NCBI GenBank assembly: GCA_963844965.1
Contig: CAWJQC010000003.1
Span: forward strand, 1-34,664
Source of the DNA: an uncultured bacterium
GTDB taxonomy: Bacteria > Patescibacteriota > Minisyncoccia > UBA6257 > 2-01-FULL-56-20
Reading direction: 5' to 3'
Length of the DNA: 34,664 nucleotides
Under the pieces are notes generated by a model. That model was not told where the DNA came from. It saw only the letters and a program-made list of their open reading frames with translations, and made no database searches. Below are positions 3,001 to 27,500 of this stretch, piece by piece. The number at the start of each line of letters is the position of its first letter. Within the stretch, counting starts at the first letter, position 1. Position numbers and translations under genes: made by a program.

Positions 3001-4627
3001 ATTTATCACGTTACTTCCACCGCTTTCCGCACCGGCGCTTCTTCCACTTGTGAAACAGCCAATCCCACGACCGACAACCGCTGGTGCTACCTCGGAGTCG
3101 TCTCTTCCACTGGTTCCTGTGTGAGCGGCACGAATTACAACGAAACCGATACCGTTGCACTTTACTACTTCGCCGATTCCACGGGCAGCCAATCGCCGAC
3201 CTCAAGTTATCCCACGCAGGATTGGGTGGCTTACGCCGTGGCGGTGGACAAGGAGGGTGCGACATCCAGTGTCACTAACTCAACTTCCTCCAACGTGGAC
3301 GTTGTCGTCCTCACGGGCTTTAACGTTTCGCCCGCGTCCTCAACCTACGGCACGCTCCTCGTCGGCCAGAACACCAGCTCCACGAACCAAATCCACTATG
3401 TGAGCAACGCCGGCAATTCCTCAACAACCCTCGCCATATCCGGTACCGCCTTCAGGTGACGGTTTGGGACATTTCCTGGCAACGAGTTCCCAGCATTACG
3501 CGACTTCTTCCTTCACATTCGGCGGAGCGGAACAGCAGTTGAGTGATTCCTCGGCGACCGTGAGCGGTTTCAATACGATTCCGTCGCACATCAACGCGTC
3601 GCCAATCGTGCAGGCGTGGCAGACGAACCCAAATTCGCTGCCCGTTGCGCTTAATCATTACTCCGCCGTCGTTTACAACGGATATATTTATACGTTAGGT
3701 GGGGGTACCAATAATGTTTACTATGCTCCGATAAACTCCAATGGCACCATAGGCGTGTGGAAAACGAATCCGAACAATATGCCCGCTTCACTTATCTATA
3801 ACACGGCTGCCGTTGCCTATAACGGATACATATATTCAATCGGAGGCGAGGATAATGGAGTCGGCGTTAACACCTCCAGTGTTTTCTATGCTCAGATAAA
3901 CGCTTCAAGCACCGGCACGTGGTATAAAAATCCCAATTCCCTGCCTACGGCGCTGGAGTACAACTCGGCTGTCGTCTGGAATGGCTATATCTACAATCTC
4001 GGCGGCACCGCAAATACAGGCAACGGTAACGGAGGCACCACTACGGTTCTCTATGCCCAAATCAACACCTCCAGCACCGGCGCGTGGACGACAAATCCGA
4101 ATTCACTGCCGAGCGGACTGGCAGCTTTTGCTGCCGCCGCCTATAACGGCTATGTGTATGTTATCGGGGGATATGTTAATGGCAGCGGTCTCGCCTCCAC
4201 CGTCTATTATGCTCCGATAAACTCCGACCACACGCTTGGCGCCTTTCAGACGAACTCCAACTCTCTGCCGAGCGCACTTGATTTCCTCTCAGCCATCGCC
4301 TATAACGGATACCTCTATGTGATAGGAGGAGAAACCGGTTCCGGCGCTACCTCCTCGGTTTTCTACGCCGCGATAAATTCCACGGGGTCGGTCGGAGTAT
4401 GGCAAAATGCCGCCTCTCTTCCGGACTCAAACGAACAAAGCTTTGCCGTTGTCTCAAACGGCTATGCCTATCTCGTGGGCGGCAGTAACGGGACGAACAA
4501 CACCTCCAGCGTCTTCTATGTATCTCTGGACAACCGCCCGATCTACTGGGGCGCGACCGCCCCCTTGCGTTCCGCCGCCGGCAACTACCAGAGCACCGTA
4601 ACCTACACGGCGGTGTGGAGCCAATAA
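1..4627 (+). pseudogene. Kelch-like beta-propeller surface protein paralogue. It is 5'-truncated by the window edge and broken by at least 6 frameshifts. Its 3' part is rearranged, with a Kelch block inserted into the shared C-terminal domain.
   Basis: Frame 3 is open from nt 3 to 1055. ORFs then alternate frames (793-1215, 1280-1657, 1851-2393, 2390-2830, 2785-3459, 3464-4627). Each resembles consecutive segments of the paralogue at 5735-8999. Repeated 'SAVAYNGYIYTIGG...SVFYAQIN...GxW' units look like Kelch repeats. The segment 3464-4627 is intact and about 90% identical at nucleotide level to 6240-7140. Confidence 0.6.
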
Positions 4628-4630
4628 AAA

Positions 4631-4662
4631 AATTAACGACATCGCAAGTCGTTAATTTTTTT
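4631..4662 (+). terminator. Rho-independent terminator hairpin (aattaacgac / atcgcaa / gtcgttaatt) followed by a T7 run. It belongs to the TTAACGACATCGYAAGTCGTTAA palindrome family.
   Basis: Perfect 10-bp stem plus T-run directly after the TAA at 4625-4627. Confidence 0.6.
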
Positions 4663-4716
4663 ATAAGACCTATAGGTCCTATACGACTTATACGACCTAT
4701 AGGTCTTATAGGTCTT
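4663..4716. repeat. Tandem 8-9 bp units TATAGGTC / TATACGAC / TATAAGAC (array 1 of 5 around the 4HB gene).
   Basis: Direct reading: ataagacc tataggtcc tatacgac ttatacgac ctataggtc ttataggtc. Confidence 0.8.
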
Positions 4717-5479
4717 GTTTCTTTTTCTTCTCCCTCGCTTCTTTCAGAATTTTTTCTATCATCTCGTCGGTTTCTTTCTCAGCTTCTTTTTCTTTCGTCA
4801 AAATTTTCCTCAGCTTCTGTTCCCGCGGTTCGAAAATCGCGCCGTTTGCTTCATGCTCCGCTCTCACTGCTCTTATCTGCATGTCCAGAAGATAATTGGT
4901 TTGGTTGATAAGACAGATAAGGCAGTTTGCCGCCTCTTCGGGATTTTCAAGATAGGTCTTATAGGTCGTATAGGACTTATCAATCCTATCAATCCTATCA
5001 GTCCTATCAGTCCTATCAATCCTATCAGTCCTATCAGTCCTATCCGTCCTATCCGTCCTATCCGTCTTATAAACCAATTGCCGAACCGCAAGCGCCCTCG
5101 GGTTGTCCTTCTTCCAGATTTGGAAATTCCGCTGGCGCAGAAAATCGGAGTAATCTTCCAGCAGTTCTTCAAAGGAAGCCCGCGCGACGCCGAGAAGAAA
5201 AATTTCGGTTTTCGGCGAGTTCTTTCCGGCGGCTGCGCCCTCTACGATGTTTTGTTTTCCTGAACGTGCCGCCTGCATCATCTGGTCGCTTTGGCGCGTA
5301 AAATGATAAGTCGTATAGGTCTTATATGTCCTATCCGACCTATCCGTCTCATCGGTCTTATCCGACTTATCGAACCCGGACCCGCGGGGTTCAACGTACC
5401 GGCGGCAAAACTCCGCGGTCATGTCGCAAATTACGGTTGCCTGTTCGTAGGATTTCAAATTTTTGTAAGTGGGCGGCAT
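4706..5479 (-). CDS. Four-helix-bundle protein (PF05635-like, '23S rRNA intervening sequence protein' family) carrying two in-frame tandem-repeat insertions.
   Basis: The core reads 'QMMQAARSGKQNIVEGAAAGKNSPKTEIFLLGVARASFEELLEDY' and matches the 4HB motif 'QL.RS..S...NI.EG..R.S..EF..FL.IA.GS..E'. A 9-bp repeat GTCCTATCA x10 is translated in frame as TDRTDRTDR. Start is placed at Met33 (5479) because upstream codons lie inside a repeat array. Confidence 0.5.
   Translation of the reverse strand: MPPTYKNLKSYEQATVICDMTAEFCRRYVEPRGSGFDKSDKTDETDRSDRTYKTYTTYHFTRQSDQMMQAARSGKQNIVEGAAAGKNSPKTEIFLLGVARASFEELLEDYSDFLRQRNFQIWKKDNPRALAVRQLVYKTDRTDRTDRTDRTDRIDRTDRTDRIDRIDKSYTTYKTYLENPEEAANCLICLINQTNYLLDMQIRAVRAEHEANGAIFEPREQKLRKILTKEKEAEKETDEMIEKILKEAREKKKKQDL
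4953..5073. repeat. Tandem array of about 13 units of 9 bp (GTCCTATCA / GTCCTATCC / ATCCTATCA) plus TATAGGTC units, inside the 4HB ORF.
   Basis: Seen directly. Period 9, so the reading frame is preserved. Confidence 0.85.
5306..5376. repeat. Tandem 8-9 bp units (TATAGGTC / CTATCCGAC family), array 3, inside the 4HB ORF.
   Basis: Seen directly. Confidence 0.75.
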
Positions 5480-5500
5480 CGTTTCGGTTTTGGTTTTTTT

Positions 5501-5561
5501 ATGCGTCCCATGCGTCTTATAGGTCCTATAAGACCTATACGTCTTATAAGTCGTATAGTAG
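5501..5561. repeat. Tandem 8-9 bp units (ATGCGTCC / TATAGGTC / TATAAGAC), array 4.
   Basis: Seen directly. Confidence 0.75.
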
Positions 5562-5606
5562 ACCCGCCGGTACAACTTATCAACATCTCCAAAAACAACG
5601 GAGCAG

Positions 5607-5615
5607 TGTTAGAAT
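5607..5615 (+). promoter_or_regulatory. TGTTAGAAT extended -10-like element (one of 4 identical copies in the window).
   Basis: Exact 9-mer TGnTAnAAT upstream of the 5735 gene. The same 9-mer occurs at 9270, 9568 and 27544, each upstream of a + strand gene. Confidence 0.35.
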
Positions 5616-5654
5616 TAGAGAAAGCGGGCATCGCGGCCCGAGGTTTTTGGTATT

Positions 5655-5720
5655 AAGTCCTATGCGTCCTATAAGTTCTATTGGCCTTATAAGTCCTATG
5701 CGTCCTATAAGACCTATAAA
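5655..5720. repeat. Tandem 8-9 bp units (TCCTATGCG / TCCTATAAG), array 5.
   Basis: Seen directly. Confidence 0.75.
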
Positions 5721-5734
5721 AAACCGTTCGCATT

Positions 5735-8700
5735 ATGAATAAGCACTTTGCCCTTGCGCTCATAATCATTGCCTCCGCGATAGTCGTTGCCGGCGGCGTT
5801 GTCGGCGTCGTTTTGGGCGACAGCACGTCGCAGATGAACCTCGGGGTTTTGAACATAACGCCGCGGCGGCCGATACTGAATTATCCTGCGCCGAACTCAA
5901 CTATTTCGTACGCGGGCAGCACTTTTCAGATAACGGCGACGAAGCCCACGGGCGGCGGCAGTTACGTGCAGTACAAACAAGTGATTTATCAGAACGAGGC
6001 CTGCACGCAGGTCGTGCAGACAAACGACGAAACGGCGTCGCAAACCGGCTGGAGCGGCGAGAACGCTTCTGCGAGCGAGGCCTATGCCGCCGGAAACGCA
6101 ACCGGTTCTGCCGGTACCTTCACTTTACAGACGAACTTGGCGACCAATACCACTTACTGGTGGGGCGCGCAGGCCTACGACCCCGACACTGCGGGAAGCT
6201 GGGGCACGAGCACGCTCACGCGAGTGGACAACGCGTGGACTACGAACGCGAATTCCCTGCCGACCACACTTTCAATGTTCTATGCCGTTACTTACAATGG
6301 ATATATTTATGCGTTAGGAGGGTGCGCTAGCACTGTTTATTACGCTCCGATAAATTCCGGCGGCACTGTGGGTATATGGACGACGAATCCGAACAATATG
6401 CCTGCTTCACTTGGCAGTGACGTAGCCGCTGTCGCCTATAACGGATATATATATACAATCGGAGGGGGAGTTTGTGGCCCCAGTGTCAACACCACTACCA
6501 TTTTCTATGCCCAGATTAACGGCTCAAGCACTGGCCCGTGGCTCACAAACCCCAATCCGCTGCCCACAGCGCTTGAGCACAACTCAGCTGTCGTCTGGAA
6601 TGGCTATATCTACAATCTTGGTGGAAGCACATCAGTCGGTAACTGTGCCAATGGCACCACCACCGTCCTCTACGCCCAAATCAACGGCTCCAGCACCGGG
6701 GCGTGGCAGACAAATCCGAATTCGTTGCCCACCACCGTAACGTGCGCAGCCGCTGCCGTCTATAATGGCTACATATATGTGATTGGGGATGATGCCATAT
6801 ATTATTCTACTTCCAGTGTCTTCTACGCCCCGATAAACTCCGACCACACGGTTGGCGCCTTTCAGACAAACCCCAATTCCCTGCCGAGTGCGATTGGGGA
6901 CAACTTCGCCGTCGCCTATAACGGCTATATATATTTGATTGGGGGGGAGAATGCCGCTAGTGTTGCTACCTCCACCGTCCTCTACGCCGCGATAAATTCC
7001 ACAGGGTCGGTCGGTGTATGGCAAAATGCCGCCTCTCTTCCGAGCTTAAACAGATACGGCTCTGCCGTTGTCTCAAACGGCTATGCCTATCTTATGGGCG
7101 GCAATGACGGGACGAATGACACTTCCACTGTTCTCTATTCCCAAATCAACCAGCTCGGTTCCACCGCCGCCGAGGGCTGGATAAACAACTCCGCTCTCGC
7201 AAGTTCAATCTATCTGAACGATGCCCTTGCCTATAACGGCTACATTTACTCAACAGGAGGAACATCGGACGGCACGAACGGAACAACAACCGTGAATTAC
7301 GCCATGCTGAACTCCAACGGCACCCTGGGCAACTGGCAAACGACGGCAGCTCTTCCCGCGAACACCGTCCAGCACGGAGCATTCGCCTATACGAACTCAG
7401 GCGGCACGACCCTCCTCTATACAATAGGCGGCGGCACCACGGTAGGAGCTGCAGGAAACAAGGTGAACCAGGCGACGGTCAACACGAACGGCACCTTGGG
7501 AACCTGGAGCGCTGCCGTTTCGGCAAACCTTCCGGCAAACTACGAGAACAGCTTCACGGGAGCGGCGAACGGCTACGCCTATCTCGTGGGAGGGGATAAC
7601 GGCACGAATGCCACAAGCGCCGTCCTCTACGGCCTCATAAGCTCCACGGGTACTATCAAGAACTGGTCTTCAACGAACCCTCTTCCCGCTGCCGTAACGA
7701 ATCAGGGAGGCATAATCCTGAACAACGTCATTTACGACATCGGCGGCAGCACGGATATCGCGGCTGCGAACATCACGACTACCGTTAACTACGCTCCCAT
7801 CAATTCCAACGGTTCTGTCGCGAGCTGGACAGTGAGCACATCTCTGCCTGCTCCCATCATCCAGCCGGACGTTGAGACCTGGAACAACTTCATCTATGTC
7901 ATCGGCGGCTCGTCAACCGTGGCCTACGGAGGAGCGACGACAACGGTTCTCTACGCCGTTCCAGCCGGCAACCAAAGTAGCTCCGGCTTCATAGTCCAGT
8001 CCAGCGGCACCTTGTCGTCATGGCTTGCCGCCACCCCTCTTCCTTCTCCTCTTTACGAGGAGGGTTCGGCTGTAGCAGACGGCTATCTCTATACCGTGGG
8101 AGGCAAGAACTCTTCGGGAGCCACTACGACCGTTCAAAACACCGGACTTTATACTTCCTGCATAGCGTTCAATTCGGTGACGAACTACGCGCCGTCGGTT
8201 TCCGCGGTTTCCTTGAACGGCGGCAACGCGCTTACCCTGACGGCCAACGCCACGACGAGCTTCAGCATAAATTATTCCGTGACCGACCCGAACGGCTGTT
8301 CCAATATCGCGAGCGTAACCTCCACCGCCTTCCGCACGGGAGTCGCCGGTGCTTGCGCCACGGCGAATCCCGCGACCGACAACCGAAATTGCTACCTGAG
8401 TGTCGTCAACTCCACGAGTTCCTGCGCGGGCACGAACTACAACGAAACCGATACTGTCGCTCTTTATTATTTCGCCGATTCAACGGGTATCACTACCTCA
8501 AGTTACCCAACCCAGCACTGGGAGGCCTACGCCACGGTCTTGAGCAATTCGGGCTTGACCGCGAGCGCCACTTCTTCCAACGTGGACGTGAACGTCCTCT
8601 CCGCCATAAACGTGACGGAGCCACTTCCAGTGTCATTAATTATGGTGCTTTATCGCAAAACGCGAATACCGGTTTGTGAATCAGACAACGACGGTGCAGA

Positions 8701-9002: not shown

Positions 9003-9236
9003 CAAAGTCAAAATTCAAAAGGCAAAAGTCAAAAGTTAAAGTAAAAAATCAAAAATGAAATACTTTTTACATTTGACATGCAATTTTGACCTTTGAGTTT
9101 TAACTTTTGACATTATCTGAGCTGACTTTTGATTTTTGCCTTTTGACCCCGAGCCCTGCGTACTGAAACAAGAACGCGACGACTTTTGACATTTGACCTA
9201 TACTTTTGACTTTTGAATTTTGCCTTTTGACCTTAA
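9003..9236. repeat. Inverted arrays of the 8-mer GTCAAAAG / CTTTTGAC. There are about 6 units on the + arm (9003-9060) and about 10 on the - arm (9066-9236).
   Basis: Seen directly. A large imperfect palindrome centred near 9062, with no gene inside. Confidence 0.75.
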
Positions 9237-9674: not shown

Positions 9675-10349
9675 GTGAACAAAACAACGGGCAGAATAAA
9701 AGAAATTGCGCGGAACAAAAAGGCAAAAATCGGGCTCTTAATCTGCGCCGTGATTGCGGCAATATTATCCGGCTACCTCATAGTCAAAGCTCTCTCGTTT
9801 GTTGATAATTTCACCACCACCAATTACGTGTCAAGCGTGTGGCACACGCAAGTGGCGACTTCTTCGGGCGTTGCCGAATTGCAGGCGAAAACTTGCAATA
9901 CTATTTCCACCTCAACCTGGTTTTGCTCCGCCACTTCCACCTCCATATGTTTGAACGACCTTGGCGACGGCGACTACATTATAGTTGCCCAAGCCGATAG
10001 CGGCCACCTGGCGTGGAAAAATGACGATACTGCCTGCTCTCGGCCGCAATGCGAGCAAGACGGCCCAGTGGACGGAAACAATCTGGTTGCCGACAACACG
10101 GTAAATTTCAGCGATTACGCGGCGCGGGCTGCCTGCCAAGCGATTGGCGGCCGTTTGCCGACGCGAAACGAATTGGGGTGCTTGTACAACAACTCATCAA
10201 CGTTCGGCGGTAACTTTGCTGCGGACTTCTACTGGTCTTCTGCCGAGGACGATGCCGCGGACGCCTACTACGTGTATTTCGCGAATGGCGGCGTGAGCAG
10301 CTACGGCAAGACCTACGCCTACTACGTCCGCTGCGTCCAAGGGTGGTAA
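9675..10349 (+). CDS. DGR target protein. It has an N-terminal membrane anchor, a Cys-rich region and a C-terminal DUF1566/FGE-like (C-type-lectin fold) domain that carries the variable repeat.
   Basis: GTG start. The C-terminus reads '...LPTRNELGCLYNN...FAADFYWSSAEDDAADAYYVYFANGGVSSYGKTYAYYVRCVQGW*', the classic DUF1566-type ending. Its last 128 nt align to the TR with A-only mismatches. Confidence 0.8.
   Translation: MNKTTGRIKEIARNKKAKIGLLICAVIAAILSGYLIVKALSFVDNFTTTNYVSSVWHTQVATSSGVAELQAKTCNTISTSTWFCSATSTSICLNDLGDGDYIIVAQADSGHLAWKNDDTACSRPQCEQDGPVDGNNLVADNTVNFSDYAARAACQAIGGRLPTRNELGCLYNNSSTFGGNFAADFYWSSAEDDAADAYYVYFANGGVSSYGKTYAYYVRCVQGW
10215..10342 (+). other. DGR variable repeat (VR).
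   Basis: 128 nt, colinear with the TR at 11061-11188 with no indels. There are 14 mismatches, all at positions where the TR has A (TR AAC codons read as TTC, GAC, TAC, AGC or GGC in the VR). A shared GC-rich 3' end 'cgtccgctgcgtccaagg' could be the IMH (initiation of mutagenic homing) element. Confidence 0.85.
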
Positions 10350-10392
10350 GATTTGGAATTTGGGCATTTGAGGATTTGTGGATTGGGTTGTA

Positions 10393-10460
10393 GTTGGTAG
10401 CTTGTAGCTGGTAGGTAGTAGGGAATTCCTACAAGCTAAAAAGCTACAAGCTAAAAAGCT
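10393..10460. repeat. Hairpin-forming repeat (GTAGCTTGTAGCTGGTAGG ... CTACAAGCTAAAAAGCTACAAGCTAAAAAG) on the left flank of the 4HB gene.
   Basis: 'agcttgtag' and 'ctacaagct' are reverse complements around gaattc. A similar copy sits on the right flank. Confidence 0.7.
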
Positions 10461-10462
10461 GA

Positions 10463-10825
10463 ATGAAAATAAATTCATATACAGACCTGATTGTTTGGCA
10501 AAAAGCAGTTGATTTAGTTGTGGAAGTTTATAATCTGACTGAGAAATTTTCCAAAAGCGAACTTTTTGGTCTAACTTCACAAATGAGACGGGCAGCAGTT
10601 TCTATTCCGTCTAATATTGCCGAGGGCAGGAGGAGAGGAACAAGAAAAGATTTTTGCCATTTTTTGGTTATCGCTTTTGGTTCAGGAGGAGAATTGGAAA
10701 CCCAAATAATAATTGCCAAGAAACTAAACTTTATAAAAATAGGCGAGTATTCAAAGGTCGATTTGTTATTAGACGAGGTTATGCGCATATTGAACGTCAT
10801 GATTCATAACCTGCAGGTTCATTAG
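10463..10825 (+). CDS. Four-helix-bundle protein (PF05635 / '23S rRNA IVS protein' family).
   Basis: 'DLIVWQKAVDLVVEVYNLTEKFSKSELFGLTSQMRRAAVSIPSNIAEG...ELETQIIIAKKL' is a near-consensus member. Confidence 0.8.
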   Translation: MKINSYTDLIVWQKAVDLVVEVYNLTEKFSKSELFGLTSQMRRAAVSIPSNIAEGRRRGTRKDFCHFLVIAFGSGGELETQIIIAKKLNFIKIGEYSKVDLLLDEVMRILNVMIHNLQVH

Positions 10826-10885
10826 CTGGTAGGTCGTAGCCTGTAGGAATTTACAAGCTAAAAAGCTACTAGCTACAAACTAATT
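10826..10885. repeat. Right-flank copy of the GGTAGG...CTACAAGCTAAAAAGCTAC hairpin repeat.
   Basis: ctggtaggtcgtagcctgtaggaatttacaagctaaaaagctactagctacaaac. Confidence 0.7.
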
Positions 10886-11060
10886 CGGCCGGAGTCTTTA
10901 ATCACGCAGCGGCTCAAGCCGCGCGGGTTAAAGAGAGTTTGCTGATATAAACCACGATTTCGCCGCCCCGTTAGGGAGCTGTGAATGTTGGGCTAAACTA
11001 ACAGGGCATTGTTGGCAAGCAGCTGTTTTACGGCTGCTGAGACAGTCCAGCGCGAAATAT

Positions 11061-11188
11061 TTTGCTGCGGACAACTACTGGTCTTCTGCCGAGAACGATG
11101 CCGCGAACGCCTACAACGTGAATTTCACGAATGGCGGCGTGAACAACAACAACAAGACCAACGCCAACTACGTCCGCTGCGTCCAAGG
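11061..11188 (+). other. DGR template repeat (TR).
   Basis: AAC-rich (reads as AADNYWSSAENDAANAYNVNFTNGGVNNNNKTNANYVRCVQG*). Every difference from the VR is at a TR adenine. Confidence 0.85.
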
Positions 11189-11227
11189 TTGATTTATAAA
11201 AGCGAAAATCGCCGATATTTCAAAAAA

Positions 11228-11584
11228 ATGCGCAACACCGAGCGATTGCCTCTTTATCACAAGACATACGGACTAATCAAGCATTTATACGGCGTGATCA
11301 GGAGCTTTCCCAAGGAATATAAATATTCTATGGGGAGCGAAATCATGAATCTTTCGTGGAAATGCCTTGACCTTATTATTGAAGCGAACGCCTACCCCAA
11401 TGCTCAAAAGAGCGTGAAAGTCGCCGAATTAAGCGCGGCATACGATAAATTAAAAATGCGGCTGCGGATGAGCCAGGAAATCAACCTGACATCAGCCGGC
11501 CAATTCGCTCATCTTGAAGAAAATTACATGCTGGAAATAGGGAAAATGATTGGCGGCTGGAAAAAATGGGCGGGGGCAGAATAA
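11228..11584 (+). CDS. avd: Avd (DGR accessory variability determinant).
   Basis: About 118 aa, placed between TR and RT. It matches the bAvd pattern (Y..L..L..V.R.FPK.YKY..G..I....W.CLDLII.A...K.......LS...D.L...LR......I......H.E...LEIGKMIGGWKK) and has the C-terminal GGW motif. Confidence 0.7.
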   Translation: MRNTERLPLYHKTYGLIKHLYGVIRSFPKEYKYSMGSEIMNLSWKCLDLIIEANAYPNAQKSVKVAELSAAYDKLKMRLRMSQEINLTSAGQFAHLEENYMLEIGKMIGGWKKWAGAE

Positions 11585-11620
11585 ATTTCTAATTTCTAAT
11601 TGACCTAATTGATTTAAATA
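11584..11620. repeat. Left inverted-repeat arm (aatttctaatttctaattgacctaatt...) of a MITE-like element.
   Basis: Its reverse complement recurs at 11863-11900. The same family, without cargo, is at 28797-28887. Confidence 0.65.
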
Positions 11621-11833
11621 ATGTTCAATTCCAAAATCCCAAACAAAGATAAATATGATTTGGAAGAAAGAACCGCAAAATTCGGCGAAGAAGTTATCAG
11701 ATTTTGCCAAGAATTGCCCCAAAATGAAATAACCAGACCGATAATAAATCAGCTGATAAAATGCGCAAAATTATGGGTTGAAGCCAAAGAGTTAAATCTG
11801 ATTTTCAACGCAATCAACAATAAATTGAAATGA
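11621..11833 (+). CDS. Truncated 4HB-family gene fragment (N-terminal two-thirds only).
   Basis: 'YDLEERTAKFGEEVIRFCQELPQNEITRPIINQLI' matches the 'FDLEERL..FA..II.L...LPK......I..QL.RS' N-terminus of 4HB proteins. It lacks the C-terminal helices. Confidence 0.4.
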   Translation: MFNSKIPNKDKYDLEERTAKFGEEVIRFCQELPQNEITRPIINQLIKCAKLWVEAKELNLIFNAINNKLK

Positions 11834-11862
11834 CGCTTTTGGTTATTGGGATTTAGGATTTA

Positions 11863-11900
11863 TTTAGGTCAATTAGAGCAATTAGAATAATTAGAAATTA
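11863..11900. repeat. Right inverted-repeat arm (tttaggtcaattagagcaattagaataattagaaatta).
   Basis: Its reverse complement matches the left arm at 11584-11620. Confidence 0.65.
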
Positions 11901-11903
11901 CCC

Positions 11904-13040
11904 ATGGCCATCTTCACCTATGAAAACCTGTATCGCGCGTATCTTGACTGCCGGCGCAATAAAAGAAAAACGATTAACGCGCTGAAATTTGAGATTGATT
12001 TAGAAAAGAATTTGTCTTTACTGCTTGAAGAATTAACGAGCCGTCGATACCAGCCAGGCCGCTCGATTTGTTCGTGGTCAAATATCCCCAGCCGCGGGAA
12101 ATATTCGCGGCTGATTTCCGCGACAGGATAGTGCACCATCTGCTGGTCGGCCAAATTCTGGCCGAAAGCGAAAAAAGCTTTTTTTACAACAGTTTCGCTT
12201 GCCGCAAAGGAAAAGGTACGCACAAGGCGGTCGGACTTTTGAGAAGATACCTGAAAAGCGCTTCCAGAAGCGGAAAAGAGAAAATATTTTACCTGCAATT
12301 GGATATCGGAAGTTTTTTCGTGTCAATCCGGCACCGCGTTTTATTTTCCATTTTCAGCGAATTTGTCGGCAAATTGAACCGGACCGAAGAATGGAAACAA
12401 GAAATTTTATGGCTGGCTGAAAAAATCATTTTTTACGAACCAGCCAAAAATTGCGAAATAAGAGGCGATAAGAGCTTGCTCGCGCTGATACCGCCGCACA
12501 AGTCGCTTTTTAACGCGCCGCCAGAACGGACTGCCGATTGGCAATTACACCTCGCAATTTTTCGCCAATATGTATCTGAACCGATTGGATTATTTCACCA
12601 AGCAGACGCTTAAGGAAAAATTTTATATCAGATATGTTGACGACATTGTGATTTTAGGAAAAAGCGCCGGCGCGCTTAAAGGTCTGATTCCCGAAATTAA
12701 CAGGTTTTTGAAAAAAGAATTGGAGATTGAACTGAATCTTGACAAGATCAAGTTCAAAAACGTTTCGGCGGGCATAGATTTTCTGGGCTATTTTGTGAAG
12801 CCGGATTACACGCTTGTCCGCCGCCGGGTGGTTAAGAATTGCAAGGAAAAAATCCGCCCTGCCCCCGAAGTTTCGAAAAAATTGGTCTCGCAAGCCAATT
12901 CTTATCTGGGGCATTTTATCCACGCCGCGAGCTACGGATTGAGAAAAATGATTTCAGAGAGGTTAATCAAAGCGGACAATTCTATACATTTTAGCAATGG
13001 CTATAAATCGATATTCGCAATAATTGGCGGGCAAAGAAAA
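11904..13040 (+). CDS. DGR-type reverse transcriptase. It is frameshifted (frame 0, then +2 near 12065, then back to 0 near 12520) and read through in frame into the downstream surface-protein gene.
   Basis: It carries these DGR-RT motifs:
- 'YQPGRSI / FVVKYPQPREIFAADFRDRIVHHLL'
- 'SFACRKGKGTHKAV'
- 'IFYLQLDIGSFF'
- 'GLPIGNYTSQFFANMYLNRLDYF' (found in frame 0)
- 'YIRYVDDIVILG' (the YxDD box)
- C-terminal 'SQANSYLGHFIHAASYGLRKMI'. Confidence 0.8.
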
Positions 13041-14975
13041 ATAATCAAAACGGCGGTTGCCGCGGCAGTTCTGCTCGCGGGCTTTTCGTTTGCTCATTCC
13101 GCCTCCGCCGCTTATTTCAAGACCGGCTCTTTGGTTTCCGCTAACCTCTTGGACGGCTTGACCAACGTCGGCGCGATTACCCAATTTAACGCCACAACTT
13201 CCATCGCGGCGGGCACTTCGGTAAGCGTCCAATTTTCCCGCAATAAACTTACCTGGTACAGCGCCTCCGGCACGGCGTTCGCCACAAGTTCGCTTTCGGA
13301 CGGCGCGAACAGCATTGACTTGTCGGCGTTGGGGTGGACCGGCCCGATTTTTTATTACAAGCTGCAATTCGCGACGAATGATTCAAGCATCACTCCGACT
13401 GTATCGGGCGTGGCCGTGAATTACAATTACAGCTCCGGACCGACGTACGAGTATTTCGGGCAAGGGTCTTTGGTTTCCGCCAATGTGCTTGACGGTCATA
13501 CGGACGTCGGCGCAATTACCGGATTTTCCGCTTCAACTACCGTGCCGGCCAGCACGACAATAACAGTCCAGTTTTCGCGCGACAAATTGGTTTGGTACAA
13601 CCATTCCGGCGTGGCGTACGCCGAAGACAGCTTGTCCAACGGCTCCAATGTCGTTAATTTGTCCGCTTTGAATTGGACCGGTCCGCTGATTTATTATAAA
13701 TTGCATTTTACCACAAGCGATGTCGGCCAGACGGCGGCTATTTCATCGGCCGAGATTGATTATTCAGCCGGTTCCGGCTCGGTATATTTCAAGCAAGGAA
13801 CATTGGTTTCAACAAATCTTTTGGCTGGCGGAGGGACGCTTAGCGGAAACGAATTGTTCGGCTATAACATTTCTTCTTTGCCTTCTGGAACAACGGTTCA
13901 GGTCCAATTCAGCACCAGTAGCGCCAATTGGTTCAGTTCCACTGGCACCGCTTGGGCGTGGGACACCTTGTCCAGCGGCAGCCACCTTACCGCTTCAACC
14001 GCGATTAACTTGTCCGCGCTTGGCTGGACCGGCGCCAGTTTTTATTACAAATTAGAATTCACAACGACTGATGCCGGCACAACTCCGACAGTCGCTCAAA
14101 TATCGCTCTTTACGCCGGGAGCGCTGCCCATCGTTACGGTTCTGATGACGGTCGTCTCAAGCAGCGCTCCCATCGTATCCGCCGTATCGGTGAACGGCGG
14201 CAATTCCATCACGCTCACGCCCGCGACAACGACCCCGATCAGCGTCAATTTCACGGTTACGGATTATTCCGGCTGTTCAAACGTTTTCACGAGCGGCAAC
14301 GTTACGACCACGCTTTACCGCATGGGCGTCGGGAGTTCGTGCGTGGCGGACAACCGCAACTGCTACAGGACTTCCTCGCAAACCAACAATTGCTCGGGCA
14401 GCGGTGCCAACGCCACGGCAACTTTGAATCTTTACTATTTCGCCGATTCCACCGGCAGCCAATCGCCGACCTCAAGTTATCCATCCGACCACTGGCAGGC
14501 CTATGTGCAGGCGCTGGACGGGACGGCGAACGCCACGGGCACCGCCACGTCAACCGTGAACGACGTTAATGTCTTGACGGCCATCACCGTTACAACTTCT
14601 TCCATCAACTACGGCACGATGTCGCCGAATGCGACGACCTCGGCCGCGAGCGACCAGCTCGCGACCGTGCAGAACGTCGGCAATTCGTCCACGACTTTGA
14701 AAATTTCCGGCACGGCGCTCGTAATGTCCTCGCCTTACGACGCGTTCGCAACGTCCAGCCAGCATTACGCCACATCCACTTTCCAGTGGAACGCCAGCGG
14801 CCCGGAGCAGCAACTTCAGCAAACACAAACAACGGTTCCGGGATTTTCTCTGACTACCCCCACCTCCACGAGTGCCGTGAGCGGTAACACTTATCGGGGC
14901 GTGCAAATTCCCGGCAGCGCGCAAAGCGGCGTGCACGTGGGGATGATAACGTTCAGCTCAAATTGGAGCCAATAA
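13041..14975 (+). CDS. Secreted surface protein with three tandem repeats of about 100 aa and the shared C-terminal domain. The start is uncertain because there is no canonical in-frame start codon.
   Basis: A signal-peptide-like 'KIIKTAVAAAVLLAGFSFAHSASA' is followed by three units of 'YFKxGSLVSxNLLDG...VQFS..KL.WY..SG.A.....LS.GSN...LSAL.WTGP..YYKL.FTT.D'. The tail is 'VSAVSVNGGN...DNRNCY...LYYFADSTGSQSPTSSYP...TVQNVGNSSTTL...QHYATSTF...WSQ*'. Confidence 0.55.
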   Translation: MIKTAVAAAVLLAGFSFAHSASAAYFKTGSLVSANLLDGLTNVGAITQFNATTSIAAGTSVSVQFSRNKLTWYSASGTAFATSSLSDGANSIDLSALGWTGPIFYYKLQFATNDSSITPTVSGVAVNYNYSSGPTYEYFGQGSLVSANVLDGHTDVGAITGFSASTTVPASTTITVQFSRDKLVWYNHSGVAYAEDSLSNGSNVVNLSALNWTGPLIYYKLHFTTSDVGQTAAISSAEIDYSAGSGSVYFKQGTLVSTNLLAGGGTLSGNELFGYNISSLPSGTTVQVQFSTSSANWFSSTGTAWAWDTLSSGSHLTASTAINLSALGWTGASFYYKLEFTTTDAGTTPTVAQISLFTPGALPIVTVLMTVVSSSAPIVSAVSVNGGNSITLTPATTTPISVNFTVTDYSGCSNVFTSGNVTTTLYRMGVGSSCVADNRNCYRTSSQTNNCSGSGANATATLNLYYFADSTGSQSPTSSYPSDHWQAYVQALDGTANATGTATSTVNDVNVLTAITVTTSSINYGTMSPNATTSAASDQLATVQNVGNSSTTLKISGTALVMSSPYDAFATSSQHYATSTFQWNASGPEQQLQQTQTTVPGFSLTTPTSTSAVSGNTYRGVQIPGSAQSGVHVGMITFSSNWSQ

Positions 14976-14983
14976 TCTTAAAA

Positions 14984-15036
14984 TTAACGACATCGTAAGT
15001 CATTAATTAATAATTAACGATGTCGTAAGTCGTTAA
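14984..15036. repeat. Two REP-like palindromes (TTAACGACATCGTAAGTCATTAA and TTAACGATGTCGTAAGTCGTTAA) between convergent genes.
   Basis: Seen directly. They are the same family as the hairpin at 4631-4657 and the palindrome at 15752-15774. Confidence 0.75.
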
Positions 15037-15722
15037 TCGAGCGAAACGTTTTTGACCTCTTCTATTTCAATATCCTTAAGCCACTGTTTTATATTTTTTT
15101 CGTATTCCGCGGGGCCGCCGAAAAATTTCATAAGAAATTCTCTATTAGTAACCGACGGAAAATTTTTCTTGCCGAGATAATCAAGGTGGCTTGACCAGCG
15201 GTAATTATCCAAGAATTTCATCGCTTCTCTATGGTTCTTGATCTCGCGTTCGCGCCATTCCGGCGCCGCGAGGTCCAGCGGGTTCACGTGTATGTAATAG
15301 GGGATATGGTTGAAATGCGATTCGTTCTTTATCACCATGGATTTGTACCTGCCTTCAAATAACGTCCCCTTCCTTTCGTATTTCTGATTGAAATATTTTG
15401 CGTATCCCACGTTGATTTTTTTCATAAACGCCGTGATAGCTCCATCCGTGCGCGGGGAAAGAAGGAGATGATAGTGGTTGGGCATTAGACAAAACGCGTA
15501 TATATCAACCAAGAGTTTTCTTGGTTCTCTTGGCTTTGATTTGCCGCCAATATAACGACTTGCGACATCGTTAGATTGGTTGAATCTATAAAAAGCGTTA
15601 TTTACCCTGTTTTGGTCGTTAAATTCAAAAAGATCGTGGATAAACCTCAAATAATCCTGTTTATCAAGGAAGATTTTGCGTTTATCCACGCCCCTGTTCA
15701 GTGTGTGGTAGACATCAGCCAT
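15033..15722 (-). CDS. REP-associated tyrosine transposase (RAYT), a Y1 HUH transposase of the IS200 type.
   Basis: HuH motif 'CLMPNHYHLLL', then 'GAITAFMKKINVGYAKYFNQKYERKGTLFEGRYKS', then 'YYIHVNPL'. REP-like palindromes flank it on both sides. Confidence 0.7.
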   Translation of the reverse strand: MADVYHTLNRGVDKRKIFLDKQDYLRFIHDLFEFNDQNRVNNAFYRFNQSNDVASRYIGGKSKPREPRKLLVDIYAFCLMPNHYHLLLSPRTDGAITAFMKKINVGYAKYFNQKYERKGTLFEGRYKSMVIKNESHFNHIPYYIHVNPLDLAAPEWREREIKNHREAMKFLDNYRWSSHLDYLGKKNFPSVTNREFLMKFFGGPAEYEKNIKQWLKDIEIEEVKNVSLD

Positions 15723-18167: not shown

Positions 18168-18237
18168 ATTAACGAGTTAACGAGTTAACGGGTTTTTTGT
18201 TATTTTTATAACTCGTTAACCCTTTAACTCGTTAACT
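18168..18237. repeat. GTTAAC-based palindromic repeats (TTAACGAGTTAACGAGTTAACGGG ... AACTCGTTAACCCTTTAACTCGTTAAC).
   Basis: Inverted copies that could form a terminator-like hairpin. The family recurs at 20720-20888, 21541-21612, 23915-23975 and 27419-27500. Confidence 0.7.
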
Positions 18238-19393: not shown

Positions 19394-19807
19394 ATGAAAA
19401 AAATTATAGAAGATCTAATTTATAAAGATTTGTCTTTCAAAATACATGGCGCGGCTATTGAAGTGCGTAGGGATTTTGGAGCAGGGCATAAAGAGAAGTT
19501 ATACCAACAGGCTCTTGCCGCAGAATTAGACAGGCGCGGTATAAAATTTGAAAGAGAGAAAGCCATCAAAATTTATTCGCCAAAAGATGGCAAGTTTGTC
19601 GGCCTCTATCGGCCAGATTTTGTCGTGGAAAACAAGATAATTGTTGAAACAAAAGTAGAAACATTTGTGAGACAGGATGAAATAAAAAGAATATATGATT
19701 ATTTGAGGAATAGTGAGTACGAGCTTGCTTATCTGGTCAATTTTGCTTCGCCGCAACTATACGTAAGAAGGATAGTTTATACAAATAAATATAAATCAAA
19801 AATCGGT
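19394..19807 (+). CDS. GxxExxY protein (PD-(D/E)XK nuclease superfamily). It has no stop codon of its own and runs in frame into the next gene.
   Basis: 'DLIYKDLSFKIHGAAIEVRRDFGAGHKEKLYQQAL...YRPDFVVENKIIVETKV...YLVNF' contains G-HK-E-KL-Y, the family signature. It is related to the ORF at 24870-25313. Confidence 0.6.
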
Positions 19808-20695
19808 ATGAAAATTGCAATACTATTCTTGGCGTCTATTGGCTTATTATTAGCGGATATTAGCGGCGTACGGGCCGCTTCGCAGTCGCTTTATTTCTCG
19901 GCGCCTTCGGGAACCATCGCCGTCGGAAGCGAATTTCCGGTCAAAATACTGATCGATTCCGACCAGCCGCTTAACGCCTATGTCGTGACTTTTTCCTACG
20001 ATCCGGGCGTGCTCACGATTGTGGGTTTTGACAACGGCAAGTCAATCATAGATGTTTGGCAGGGGCAGCCGGCCGTTTCCGAAAACGGTTCCGTCGGCTT
20101 GCGCGGCGGCAGCGTCACCCCGTTCAGCGGGAAAGGCGGTAACATCATTACCGTCAATTTCCGGGCGGTGGGAGAAGGAGAGCCGATGCTCGCGTTCGGC
20201 AACTCATCGTTTTATATGGCGAACGGCAAAGGCACGAAAGTTGTTCCGCAAACCGCCGATCTGAAGTTTCAAATTCTTTCGGCCGGCGCCGTCACTTCAA
20301 CACTTCCGGTTTACGAGGAGGCATCGGATATCGCGCCGCCGACCATAAAATATCTGTCTCTCGTCCAGGATCCGTTCAACAGCGGGCAAAAACTTCTGAG
20401 CTTTATGGTTTCGGATCCCGACTCCGGTATCAGGGAGACTCTGGTGCGTACGCGTTCACTCCTCCTCTGGAGCGACTGGATTCCGGCGCAAAACCCGACC
20501 GCGATTCCATTATCCGCCTGGTCCATCGGCTTCAGAGCCATTGATAACAGAGGAAATATTTCGGAAAGAACGCTTTACAACTTTTCGGCGTTTTTGCGTC
20601 CCGAAGCGTTGGGCGTCGCGGCGCTCTTCATTATATTTTTAGTTATCATCGGCTTTATTATAGTAAAGATTAAAAAAGGTCGTTCCGTATCATAG
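19808..20695 (+). CDS. Secreted protein with a cohesin-like N-terminal domain and a C-terminal TM anchor.
   Basis: ATG at 19808 is followed by the signal peptide 'MKIAILFLASIGLLLADISGVRA'. The motif 'AYVVTFSYDPGVLTIVGF' resembles the cohesin 'F.YDP.VL' core. The C-terminus 'LGVAALFIIFLVIIGFIIVKIKK' is a membrane anchor. Confidence 0.45.
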   Translation: MKIAILFLASIGLLLADISGVRAASQSLYFSAPSGTIAVGSEFPVKILIDSDQPLNAYVVTFSYDPGVLTIVGFDNGKSIIDVWQGQPAVSENGSVGLRGGSVTPFSGKGGNIITVNFRAVGEGEPMLAFGNSSFYMANGKGTKVVPQTADLKFQILSAGAVTSTLPVYEEASDIAPPTIKYLSLVQDPFNSGQKLLSFMVSDPDSGIRETLVRTRSLLLWSDWIPAQNPTAIPLSAWSIGFRAIDNRGNISERTLYNFSAFLRPEALGVAALFIIFLVIIGFIIVKIKKGRSVS

Positions 20696-20719: not shown

Positions 20720-20888
20720 GTTAACGAGTTAACTTCTTTTCTTAACCGGTTGGTCGGTTATTGCGGTTAACGAGTTCGCGAGTTAACGAGTTAAAATCCA
20801 AACCCGTTAACTCGTTAACACGTTAACTCGCCAACTACATAACTGTTTGTTCGATAAATTAAACTCGTTAACACGTTAACTCGTTAAT
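20720..20888. repeat. Cluster of GTTAACGAGTTAAC-type palindromic repeats, about 10 units in both orientations.
   Basis: Seen directly. Fills the whole intergenic region upstream of sodA. Confidence 0.75.
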
Positions 20889-20914: not shown

Positions 20915-21538
20915 ATGAAATTCGAATTACCAAAGTTGCCGTACGCATATGACGCGCTTGAGCCATTTATAGATGCGCGAACAATGGAGCTGCACCATGC
21001 CAAACATCATCAGACCTATGTTACCAAGCTAAACGAAGCCATGGCGAAGCATCCCGAACTGGAAACGCCGAGTTTGGAAAAATTGCTTCAGTCGCTGGAT
21101 AGCGTTCCCGCAGATATTCGCACTGCCGTGCGGAATCACGGTGGCGGCCACTATAACCACTCGTTTTTCTGGAGGGTGATGGCGCCGCATTCCGAAAAAA
21201 GCGATAAGCCGCAAAACGGCGGACTTGCCGAAAAAATCGAAAAAACATTCGGCAGCTTCGCAAAATTCAAAGAAACTTTCAGTTCGGCAGCCGCCGGCGT
21301 TTTCGGCAGCGGCTGGGCGTGGCTCGTTTCCGATCCATCGGGTAAATTATCTATCACGACAACGCTGAATCAAGATAGCCCGATCGTGAGCGGCCTCAAG
21401 CCATTGCTTTGTCTTGACGTCTGGGAACACGCCTATTACCTGAAATATCAAAACCGCAGGTCCGAGTACATTGAAGCGTGGTGGAGTGTCGTGAACTGGG
21501 AACAGGTTAATAAGAACCTTAACGAATTAATCGATTAA
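20915..21538 (+). CDS. sodA: Fe/Mn superoxide dismutase.
   Basis: '[29 protein letters not shown]', 'GSGWAWL' and '[15 protein letters not shown]...VVNW' are hallmark SOD motifs. Confidence 0.9.
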
Positions 21539-21540
21539 AG

Positions 21541-21612
21541 AGTTAACGAGTTCACGAGTTAACGGGTTAAAATATCAAACAACTCGTTAACACGTTAATA
21601 AACAACCCGTTA
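21541..21612. repeat. GTTAACGAG palindromic repeats downstream of sodA.
   Basis: agttaacgagttcacgagttaacgggtt ... aactcgttaacacgttaat ... cccgttaattcattaacg. Confidence 0.7.
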
Positions 21613-23898: not shown

Positions 23899-23914
23899 CC
23901 GAACTAATTAAAGG

Positions 23915-23975
23915 ATTAACGGATTAACGCATTAACGGATAATAATTCGTTAATTCGCAATTCGTTAATAAGAAA
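23915..23975. repeat. ATTAACGGATTAACGCATTAACGG / TTCGTTAATTCGCAATTCGTTAAT inverted repeats.
   Basis: Seen directly between convergent genes. Confidence 0.65.
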
Positions 23976-24855: not shown

Positions 24856-24871
24856 ACGAAAGTACGAAACT
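24821..24871. repeat. TACGAAA(A/T/G) x5 array spanning the fmt start and the GxxExxY stop.
   Basis: Seen directly. Confidence 0.8.
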
Positions 24872-25313
24872 AGCGAATGTTGATAATTCTTTTGTATTTC
24901 ACGCCCGACCTCGTGAATCTTGCCAAAATTCCCAATTTTAAACCAGTAGCCTTTAGATAGTTATACAGTTGATCGATGTCACGCTTGTTAAATGTATTGC
25001 CCTGCTTTATTTCCAAAACAATCTTTCCGTCAATCAAAAAATCTAAATAATTTGTGGCGATAAATTTATCGCGATAGCATATTTTTACAGGCAATTCTCG
25101 CTTAAAATTCAGACCCACGCCCTTAAAAGCAACTTCGATTGCTCTTTGATATTGGTTTTCTCTGTAGCCGTAGCCGAGTTGCAAGAAAATATCAAAAAGA
25201 ACCCCAACGATTTGGTAACTTAATTCAGGATATATTAAGTCTGGCTTGTAGACCCTACCCCTTTTCGTATTTTCGTACATTTTCGTATTTTCGTATGTTG
25301 CTTGCTTTGTCAA
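24870..25313 (-). CDS. GxxExxY protein (PD-(D/E)XK superfamily) inserted between def and fmt.
   Basis: 'LSYQIVGVLFDIFLQLGYGYRENQYQRAIEVAF...KIVLEIKQG' contains G-YR-E-NQ-Y. The ORF opens with TTG at 25313, and the first ATG (about 25280) lies inside the TTTCGTA repeat array. Confidence 0.6.
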   Translation of the reverse strand: MTKQATYENTKMYENTKRGRVYKPDLIYPELSYQIVGVLFDIFLQLGYGYRENQYQRAIEVAFKGVGLNFKRELPVKICYRDKFIATNYLDFLIDGKIVLEIKQGNTFNKRDIDQLYNYLKATGLKLGILARFTRSGVKYKRIINIR

Positions 25314-27418: not shown

Positions 27419-27500
27419 GCGGGTTAACGCGTTTAAAGAGTTAACGAGTTTAGAAATTCACAACCCGTTAACGCATTAACTCGTTAACTATATAATCGGT
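27419..27500. repeat. GGTTAACGCG ... GTTAACGAG ... CCCGTTAACGCATTAACTCGTTAAC palindromic repeats.
   Basis: Seen directly. Confidence 0.7.

Follow-up and report, generated by a model that had tools for sequence, protein, structure and literature searches.

The closest described precedent for the locus reported here is the intervening sequence (IVS) in the 23S rRNA gene of Coxiella burnetii, which contains an open reading frame (ORF) for an S23p protein, has a 28-bp terminal stem cut by RNase III, and carries two to three tandem heptamers, GACAGAT, just 5′ of the start codon in a strain-dependent number (PMC4990558). The present locus is located in a 34,664-nucleotide stretch of DNA from an uncultured bacterium of the Patescibacteriota (contig CAWJQC010000003.1 of assembly GCA_963844965.1), which is referred to in its full length as the window. 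It consists of a four-helix-bundle suffix gene on the minus strand, at positions 4706–5479, with five arrays of a nine-base repeat, the nonamer, in and around it. Because it marks relatives of the gene in many phyla, the nonamer probably belongs to the gene as a conserved, working component and did not arise by local accident. Across phyla, gene and element are inherited together; the synonymous positions of the element are conserved, and its nucleic acid is self-complementary. The most likely reading, at slightly less than even odds, is that the nonamer is a conserved cis-acting element that, like the termini of IVSs, folds the transcript into a stem and hairpins, and that copies in frame are tolerated as linkers.

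In both the Coxiella IVS and the window locus, a homologous four-helix-bundle ORF lies within terminal inverted repeats (a 28-bp stem in Coxiella, 34 nucleotides at 94% complementarity in the window), short tandem repeats directly precede the start codon, and the cassette is regarded as selfish and horizontally spread; for the window gene, this label is putative. By contrast, the window locus is not positioned in helix 25 or 45 of an rRNA gene. It has protein genes on both sides, and a search of positions 4400–5900 against Rfam gave nothing meaningful, neither rRNA nor any other family. Relatives of the window gene occur inside operons of clustered regularly interspaced short palindromic repeats (CRISPR) or of restriction–modification systems. 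The arms of the window locus are themselves tandem nonamers, and the unit is also found within the coding sequence and across the stop codon. RNase III cleavage, described for Coxiella, is a candidate process at the window locus.

The register of the arrays was set by reading positions 4300–6100 in nine-base steps, and Tandem Repeats Finder was run alongside. The locus has the following features.

4706–5479, minus strand: four-helix-bundle suffix gene of 257 residues, with ATG at 5479 and TAA at 4706–4708, starting MPPTYKNLKSY
5480–5575, minus strand: in-frame upstream extension carrying array A4 in the polar frame, probably a 5′ leader judging by homologs, which begin at M33
4664–4717, minus strand: array A1, six nonamer units spanning the stop codon; the GAC CTA TAA frame closes the ORF as QDL followed by the stop
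4953–5069, minus strand: array A2, 13 units, in frame, in the loop between helix 127–137 and helix 168–178
5307–5369, minus strand: array A3, seven units, in frame, read as DKS DKT DET DRS DRT YKT YTT, in the loop between helices 1 and 2
5505–5558, minus strand: array A4, six units, 25 nucleotides 5′ of the start codon
5654–5716, strand unassigned: array A5, seven units, between TGTTAGAAT (5607) and the start of a plus-strand gene at 5735
4679–4712, strand unassigned: left arm of the inverted repeat, pairing with 5525–5558
5525–5558, strand unassigned: right arm of the inverted repeat, pairing with 4679–4712

A first-pass annotation of this DNA had reported five tandem arrays with periods of 8–9 bp. 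All five are present at the places given, between 4664 and 5716 and nowhere else in the window; however, every array has a period of 9 (or 18), and the 8-mers are the cores of 9-mers. The unit reads TA-nn-G-w-C-y-TA on the plus strand and [T/G/C/A]AT-[A/C]nG-[A/T]Cn on the minus, coding strand. A three-unit IUPAC pattern, ATMNGWCNNATMNGWCNNATMNGWC, allowing at most one mismatch, has 48 matches on the two strands, all within 4663–5718. Because 0.00 matches are expected from shuffled sequences, chance is excluded as the origin of the arrays. No double unit of the nonamer was found elsewhere in the 34.6-kb window. The unit can be read in a polar frame (K-T-Y or R-T-D), a hydrophobic frame (I-G-L or P-I-R), and a stop-containing frame (GAC CTA TAG). 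The in-frame copies are always in one harmless frame, [K/R]-[T/S]-[D/Y], and form disordered linkers, and the stop-containing frame supplies the stop codon. The translated repeat had been given as YKTDRTDRTDRTDRTDRIDRTDRTDRIDRID, which is exact, and A2 and A3 both run through the ORF without breaking its frame, as had been stated. The cleanest array is A2 (4978–5070, period 9, 10.3 copies, and 94% matches according to Tandem Repeats Finder), which is translated as KTD(RTD)4 RID (RTD)2 RID RID KSY TTY KTY.

Positions 2 (A) and 8 (C) of the unit are fixed by the amino acids, and positions 3 (T) and 6 (G) are synonymous choices. Since positions 3 and 6 complement positions 2 and 8, the unit is dyad-symmetric; it combines G-W-C with a core that is either TATA or GATC. 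Its pattern finds matches equally on the two strands, and a polarity test of the flanking arrays gave only a weak 2:1 bias; these arrays are therefore essentially symmetric. The idea that the unit serves to provide sites for Dam (GATC) or AvaII (GGWCC) was dropped, since most lineages have a core of TATA, AATA, or GATA.

The maximal minus-strand ORF, 4706–5575, encodes 289 residues from a TTG start. It exists as previously described, except that the start has been replaced by the ATG at 5479, at the position of M33, on the basis of an alignment with 34 homologs that begin M-x-Y-x-x-L-K-S-Y. With the true start at 5479, A4 is leader and not coding sequence. The 257-residue protein has all 36 of the 36 invariant columns of the family. 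A total of 5,681 homologs have been identified at E ≤ 0.001 among 8,000 candidates scored, with a best E-value of 2e-72; most of them are annotated with PF05635 or named 'four helix bundle (suffix)', and most of the 120 best have a precomputed PF05635 match. The protein itself scores 21.2 bits against the Pfam hidden Markov model (HMM) PF05635 (23S_rRNA_IVP), the gathering score of which is 33.8. It reaches 35 bits against TIGR04258, the C-terminal suffix domain (cut-off 40, E = 1e-8), at residues 180–214 directly after A2. The score against TIGR02436 is 24.1 bits for the 257-residue protein and 23.8 bits for the 289-residue ORF, with a cut-off of 24. TIGR04258 matches all 35 aligned homologs, with a best E-value of 1.3e-22, and TIGR02436 matches 34 of the 35 at E ≤ 0.001. 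Excision of the arrays gave no gain in the PF05635, TIGR04258, and TIGR02436 scores; the protein is simply a divergent member. Its membership of the family follows from the more than 5,600 homologs, mostly PF05635-bearing, together with the confident helical model, and not from its own HMM scores. The previously claimed recognisable four-helix-bundle core is thus upheld by model and homologs, although not by the PF05635 score.

The AlphaFold model is all-helical, with a mean predicted local distance difference test (pLDDT) value of 81 and core helices above 90. Values below 50 are found at residues 34–36, 49–55, and 139–166, in agreement with the proposal that the insertions fall in inter-helix loops. 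The low-confidence non-helical segments of the model, residues 30–61 (pLDDT about 50–55) and 138–167, match A3 and A2. The closest structure in the PDB is 2RLD, chain E, of the S23 family (TM-score 0.61, root-mean-square deviation 2.7 over 112 columns, probability 0.90), for which the Foldseek E-values are not significant. An hhalign comparison with the classical four-helix-bundle gene at 10463–10825 gave a probability of 79% and an E-value of 2e-5, with helices 1–3 aligned, A3 as an insertion, and QMMQAARSGKQNIVEG aligned with QMRRAAVSIPSNIAEG. The protein encoded at 4706–5479 has the up-down four-helix fold and the helix-2 motif Q-x-x-R-[AS]-x-x-S-x-x-x-N-I-x-E-G. Searches of PADLOC and PHROG produced no matches for this protein or its basal relatives, and a look-up of the exact protein sequence gave no recorded match. 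On this evidence, the gene is an intact, divergent member of the four-helix-bundle suffix family with the arrays in predicted disordered loops. The suffix family is a branch of the S23p/23S-rRNA-IVS/Avd-like four-helix-bundle proteins.

The repeat has been compared at 80 loci from species-representative genomes and 80 loci from metagenomes, from Patescibacteria, Nitrospirota, Planctomycetota, Verrucomicrobiota, Desulfobacterota, Acidobacteriota, Chloroflexota, and others, including one contig labelled Bathyarchaeia. The unit on the coding strand of these 160 related loci is NAT-MNG-WCN, which takes the form [T/G]ATA-[A/G]G-[A/T]C-N in the window. One carrier of a family member with arrays, Geomobilimonas luticola JCM 17780 (L059), is culturable. 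Arrays recur before the start codon, in the helix 3–4 loop, and across the stop codon, and relatives from the candidate phyla radiation (CPR) also have them in the helix 1–2 loop. In the genome loci, arrays of period 9, 18, or 27 are about nine times denser within 400 bp of the gene than elsewhere. In the metagenome loci, a motif-run detector identified 151 runs in 65 kb near the gene versus 8 in 222 kb away from it, a 64-fold difference, and 5 runs in 287 kb when the same loci were shuffled. The arrays, which had been taken for a private expansion in one selfish gene, are instead a hallmark of the whole suffix family across phyla, with non-coding copies at the gene ends. Orthologs with ordinary, non-repetitive sequence at the array sites were looked for, and the homologs carry the same repeat instead. 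No published description of the nonamer repeat was found in the searchable literature.

The helix 3–4 loop contains an array in 65 of 80 loci, always in the polar frame, and all 35 aligned homologs have x-[TS]-[DY] triplets there, with YKTDxTYxTYxxY as the minimum. Roughly one in two CPR-type homologs has an array in the helix 1–2 loop, at the position of A3. An array is found upstream, no more than 150 bp away, in 28 of 77 metagenome loci and about 30 of 80 genome loci; in about a third of loci, an array ends some tens of bases 5′ of the start codon or contains it. Downstream arrays are present in 24 of 73 metagenome loci, and about a third of loci have an array that begins at the stop codon. 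The stop codon is overlapped by an array at 15 of 73 metagenome loci and at many genome loci, and the DL-stop ending of the window protein is shared with homologs P0024, P0028, and P0030. In some homologs (for example P0004, P0010, P0018, and P0033) the flanking arrays are translated as N- or C-terminal tails, and at CPR loci arrays occupy the entire intergenic space on both sides. At one locus the following gene has a hydrophobic N-terminus that is encoded by an array. Copy number extends from about 4 units, in 170-residue proteins with YKTDKTYETYRTY, to more than 30 in a protein of 302 residues, which bears out the expectation that protein length varies with copy number. A search for the (TDR)n peptide among 1.8 billion representatives is uninformative on specificity: most of the matches were generic low-complexity proteins of the xDR/xDK kind, from very diverse organisms.

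The type of the core tracks the protein subtype and not the GC content: GATC occurs in the zinc-finger type and TATA or AATA in the basal type, and the two overlap in GC. There is a subfamily from the Planctomycetes–Verrucomicrobia–Chlamydiae (PVC) group (L010, L011, L021, L028, L030, and others) in which a C-terminal topoisomerase-type zinc ribbon, CPxCG...FWGCSGYPxCKG, follows a further GATC-type nonamer array. One such protein, P0022, is annotated by its source as a topoisomerase zinc-finger protein.

For codon counts, the helix 3–4 loop was delimited by protein anchors alone. The ratio of the tyrosine codons TAT and TAC is 151:33 in the loop versus 245:277 in the rest of the gene (p = 2e-17), and 166:17 versus 231:218 in a replicate locus set (p = 5e-23); the loop is likewise skewed toward AAT, GAT, AAG, AGG/CGG, and TCN. 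In 2,248 pairs of basal-type genes with 45–85% protein identity, identical residues have the same codon in 64% of loop columns versus 41% elsewhere. The same-codon share is 0.89 versus 0.51 for tyrosine and 0.64 versus 0.26 for arginine. Synonymous unit positions are conserved, and the constraint is therefore partly on the nucleic acid. Selection for translatability, which the first-pass annotation had suggested, is consistent with the in-frame polar reading but is only half of the constraint, since the synonymous positions are conserved too. Among 152 loci, 87% have loop RNA with a better fold than synonymous recodings of the same peptide (mean z −1.9, p = 1.5e-22), and an equal-length control stretch of the same genes has a z of −0.09. 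On the sense strand, the recoding effect is about double that on the antisense strand (z −1.9 versus −0.9, p = 4e-14).

The arms at 4679–4712 and 5525–5558 are 34 nucleotides long, 94% complementary, and 812 nucleotides apart, around the ORF. As RNA, their duplex has a calculated energy of −50.9 kcal/mol (z −7.5 versus shuffles), and they pair at 31 of 33 positions, a value that was reached in no more than 4 of 500 column permutations of the arrays. A second pair of arms, at 4657–4712 and 5668–5723, involves the arrays farthest out, A1 and A5; it is 56 nucleotides long and 79% complementary. At other loci, upstream and downstream arrays are modestly more complementary to each other than permuted ones (mean z +1.1, 28 array pairs). 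Two further genes of IVS-associated families in the window, 10463–10825 and 24870–25313, are bracketed by complementary arrays of other units.

Array A5 is an outer arm of the element and is also probably part of the 5′ untranslated region (UTR) of the plus-strand gene starting at 5735, because it is positioned between the promoter-like TGTTAGAAT and the start of that gene. The sequence TGTTAGAAT looks like an extended −10 promoter. It occurs four times on the plus strand (5607, 9270, 9568, and 27545; 0.18 expected), each time 5′ of a plus-strand gene. The copies at 5607 and 9270 precede, in this order, a hairpin with a T-run, a short tandem array, and a start codon.

If the nonamer is a cis-acting structural element, the arrays would act by pairing in the transcript, and possibly in single-stranded DNA. 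Paired arrays would bracket the ORF with a stem and add local hairpins. Such pairing could insulate, process, or stabilise a small gene that is usually located within other transcription units, and the hairpins may also be bound by the four-helix-bundle protein itself. The long arrays of the CPR genome, especially the near-identical (TDR)n run, would then be recent slippage expansions of an ancestral element.

Several observations weigh against the formation of structure in the transcript. Unit positions K1 and M4, and n5 and n9, pair no more often than permuted columns, and only the pairing of M4 with K1 of the next unit is enriched (z 5.2). There is no covariation at the variable positions, so that complementarity between two average units amounts to only about 65%. 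A binding site would look like this as much as a helix would, with a fixed motif and degenerate positions, and the mostly negative outcome of the within-array covariation test lowers the confidence in a pure structure model. Many basal relatives have the internal loop array only, with no flanking partner. The recoding result partly reflects the descent of units by duplication, and all of the statistics ignore phylogeny; the asymmetry between sense and antisense strands could come from the energy parameters. Array A5 may belong to the 5′ UTR of the neighbouring gene and not to the element.

The lack of covariation bears directly on an alternative that we regard as unlikely but worth serious consideration: the arrays may be operator- or iteron-like binding sites, at which the four-helix-bundle protein or a partner would bind DNA or RNA cooperatively and thereby regulate or package the locus. 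An invariant A at position 2, T at 3, G at 6, and C at 8, beside freely varying positions that do not covary, are typical of a recognition motif. The dyad symmetry of the unit, the placement of arrays next to start and stop codons, the co-variation of the unit core with protein subtype, and the zinc ribbon that follows a further array in PVC-type relatives all fit binding sites. So does the homolog Avd, which binds an RNA stem-loop with all five of its protomers (bioRxiv 10.1101/2023.10.23.563531) and is a four-helix-bundle protein that works with a structured RNA encoded beside its own gene. However, an operator in the middle of a coding sequence, conserved in nearly all members, would be unusual; a spacing of 9 bp does not hold sites on one face of B-DNA; and the folding signal is stronger on the sense strand. 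The analogy with Avd also has limits: the window suffix protein has no match to NF033474 or PF22296, whereas the Avd of the window, at 11228–11584, matches NF033474. Neither a reverse transcriptase nor a template repeat adjoins the suffix gene, for whose protein an RNA ligand is only a candidate. Nucleic-acid binding would be a new property for the suffix subfamily.

It is also possible, although improbable, that selection acts on the protein only. A polar, disordered [K/R]-[T/S]-[D/Y] linker would be maintained, and the regularity of the DNA and the flanking arrays would be by-products of unit duplication and of the drift of start and stop codons in formerly coding tails. The consistent polar frame of the coding arrays, the retention of the peptide pattern where the DNA core shifts from TATA to GATC, and the translated tails of P0004, P0010, P0018, and P0033 agree with this explanation, as does the avoidance of the hydrophobic frame by upstream arrays (frame counts about 31:11:22 in a hand tally). 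Selection on the peptide does not account for the synonymous codons that are fixed in short, ancient three-unit loops across phyla, as seen in two independent locus sets and in the pairwise comparisons, or for the greater self-complementarity of the real sequence relative to recodings of the same peptide. Moreover, the non-coding arrays are found in all three frames and fill whole intergenic regions.

The units of the (TDR)n run in A2 are 94% identical, which points to its recent expansion, and copy number can differ between near-identical homologs: among pairs that are more than 90% identical, P0035 and P0162 differ by one unit and P0096 and P0147 by six. Both facts would be expected if the nonamer were a neutral by-product, a slippage-prone quasi-palindromic microsatellite that is tolerated in loops because nine is a multiple of three and that has spread with a mobile or horizontally transferred gene. 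The genome is also full of other 7–9-bp arrays, some of them within housekeeping genes such as fmt. This explanation is distinctly improbable, given that the same three or four positions are kept across phyla, with degenerate arrays retaining A, T, G, and C at positions 2, 3, 6, and 8, that arrays are stable within populations, and that within the window the nonamer is confined to the 4706–5479 gene. The stability was assessed in two ways. The protein length is the same in all 17 members of one cluster at 90% identity and in all five members of another, and no copy-number heterogeneity was found at one locus in three independent assemblies from three samples, in which the arrays are identical. 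The copy-number variability proposed earlier applies to some near-identical homologs, but within most 90% clusters the length is constant. Change in the arrays is real but slow, and falls short of hypervariability.

It is very improbable that the locus is a contingency (phase-variation) switch that turns the gene on or off as repeats are gained or lost, despite tandem repeats at the start and stop codons and inside the ORF and some variation in copy number, because a 9-bp unit never shifts the frame, the 17 and five members of the two clusters are equal in length, and the arrays are identical in three independent assemblies. An assembly artefact or chimera is scarcely credible: short tandem repeats are difficult to assemble, but either internal array has in-frame, family-homologous sequence on its two sides, the same architecture is seen at more than 160 loci from independent assemblies, and the longest array, of 117 bp, is shorter than a typical read.

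In-frame tandem repeats are known from other systems. The Borg elements of Methanoperedens reportedly carry in-frame tandem repeats that create disordered regions. Like these, the nonamer has a unit divisible by three, encodes a polar, low-complexity, disordered peptide, and would be introduced by slippage. Unlike the Borg repeats, which are said to be locus-specific and near-perfect, it is degenerate, family-wide across phyla, dyad-symmetric, and also present in non-coding flanks. Repetitive extragenic palindromic (REP) sequences, bacterial interspersed mosaic elements, and Correia-type repeats are dispersed genome-wide and tied to no gene family. Like the nonamer, they are self-complementary and intergenic; they fold into hairpins in the transcript and influence how RNA is processed or how stable it is, as the nonamer may do. 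By contrast, the nonamer is tied to one family and enters its coding sequence.

The window gene is located between two Kelch-repeat surface-protein genes and on the opposite strand to them. Approximately 60% of the non-CPR relatives are inside CRISPR type I-C or restriction–modification operons. Among 46 same-strand downstream neighbours of non-CPR relatives are eight Cas1 and about 20 subunits of type I or IIG restriction–modification systems or RhuM. At seven loci from different phyla (L013, L017, L018, L019, L024, L033, and L045), the suffix gene is about 650 bp upstream of a closely similar cas1. Five of these (L013, L017, L018, L019, and L033) have, as read from the sequence, a Cas4-like ORF directly 3′ of the suffix gene, and at four of the five a three-unit nonamer array stands between the suffix-gene stop codon and this ORF. 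The upstream ORF in L013 and L019 reads as Cas7-like, judged from its translation, and the whole CRISPR locus appears to travel with the suffix gene. In a published list of new associations for CRISPR adaptation modules, '23S rRNA IVP' is one of the entries (PMC10910872).

A more specific proposal, which we consider speculative and rather improbable, is that the suffix protein has the nonamer array as its cognate nucleic-acid ligand. Protein and repeat RNA (or DNA) would make up a self-encoded module, with the ligand partly within the coding sequence of its own protein, and the module would operate in defence loci, for example in CRISPR type I-C adaptation modules and in operons for type I restriction–modification. 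Such a module would be comparable in its logic to Avd with its stem-loop or ToxN with ToxI and yet be of a new kind. In ToxIN, the units of ToxI are about 36 nucleotides long and located upstream only, ToxN is an endoribonuclease, and the repeat RNA is the partner of the protein. The window locus likewise has a tandem direct-repeat array immediately 5′ of a small protein gene, and both families occur in defence contexts. It differs from ToxIN in that its unit is 9 nucleotides long and is also internal and downstream, and in that its protein is a helical bundle unlike the ToxN/AbiQ fold, with no PADLOC or PHROG match.

S23p, IVS, and four-helix-bundle proteins are among the most abundant small bacterial proteins without an assigned function. 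A conserved dyad-symmetric nonamer that constrains synonymous sites provides a concrete handle on this function, and predicts a nucleic-acid partner or an RNA-processing step. The locus links classical rRNA intervening sequences to stem-bracketed cassettes in ordinary operons, of which the window contains three different examples, and indicates how a protein can take up a cis element in the form of a disordered linker. In annotation, the arrays account for genes that fall below curated HMM cut-offs and have unstable starts, stops, and lengths.

The window also contains a complete diversity-generating retroelement (DGR) at 9675–14975. Its variable repeat (about 10219–10345) is at the 3′ end of the gene 9675–10349, its template repeat is at about 11066–11192, and its Avd gene is at 11228–11584. 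Every difference between the variable and template repeats falls at a template adenine. The DGR reverse transcriptase is split over overlapping ORFs, 12068–12613 and 12570–14975; this points either to a frameshift or to fusion with a long tail from a surface protein. A link between the suffix gene and this DGR has been rejected: the DGR has its own Avd, and the suffix gene lies 5.5 kb away, outside the unit of variable repeat, template repeat, Avd, and reverse transcriptase. The classical four-helix-bundle gene 10463–10825 (PF05635, 132 bits) is positioned between the variable and template repeats and is flanked by copies of a hairpin-forming repeat block, 10384–10462 and 10826–10885, with a duplex energy of −54.9 kcal/mol (z −6.9).

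Between def and fmt, the minus strand carries an inserted gene of the GxxExxY/PD-(D/E)XK type, 24870–25313. Inverted octamer arrays bracket it, (TACGAAAA)n at 24837–24869 and (TTTTCGTA)n at 25262–25296, the duplex of which has an energy of −36.2 kcal/mol (z −6.7). Translation of the octamer array extends into Def at its C-terminus and into the inserted ORF at its N-terminus. The fmt gene itself carries two (TTGGAAA)x4.3 arrays, 24351–24380 and 24608–24638, which leave its frame intact and encode the peptides SISNYQLPIS and FPISNFQFP. The KsgA-like protein P0177 of another organism, which was found with the (TDR)n peptide and is unannotated by search, contains LISNFQFPIV together with two (KTD/RTD/KSY)n runs. 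Similar short repeat peptides thus occur in different conserved genes of different genomes. A second GxxExxY domain forms residues 13–128 of the ORF 19394–20695, where it is fused to a 300-residue C-terminal part with a weak cohesin-like match; this ORF may be a gene-call fusion across a cassette boundary.

A gene resembling REP-associated tyrosine transposases (Y1_Tnp) is located beside a doubled hairpin, TTAACGACATCG(C/T)AAGTC(G/A)TTAA, in the regions 15033–15722 and 14978–15037. The same hairpin also ends the gene at 4627 (4630–4652). Related inverted octamer arrays, (TTAACGAG)n and (CTCGTTAA)n, follow several genes, and these may be REP-like terminators.

18169–18237; 20766–20887; 21519–21570; 23907–23969; 27462–27489: sites listed with the Y1_Tnp hairpin and the octamer arrays

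Finally, positions 9004–9231 comprise dense, ORF-free heptamer arrays in opposite orientations, (AAAGTCA)n, (TTTTGAC)n, and (GACTTTT)n. This block is directly 3′ of a gene for a 1107-residue protein, the C-terminal residues of which (KSKFKRQKSKVKVKNQK) are encoded by the array.

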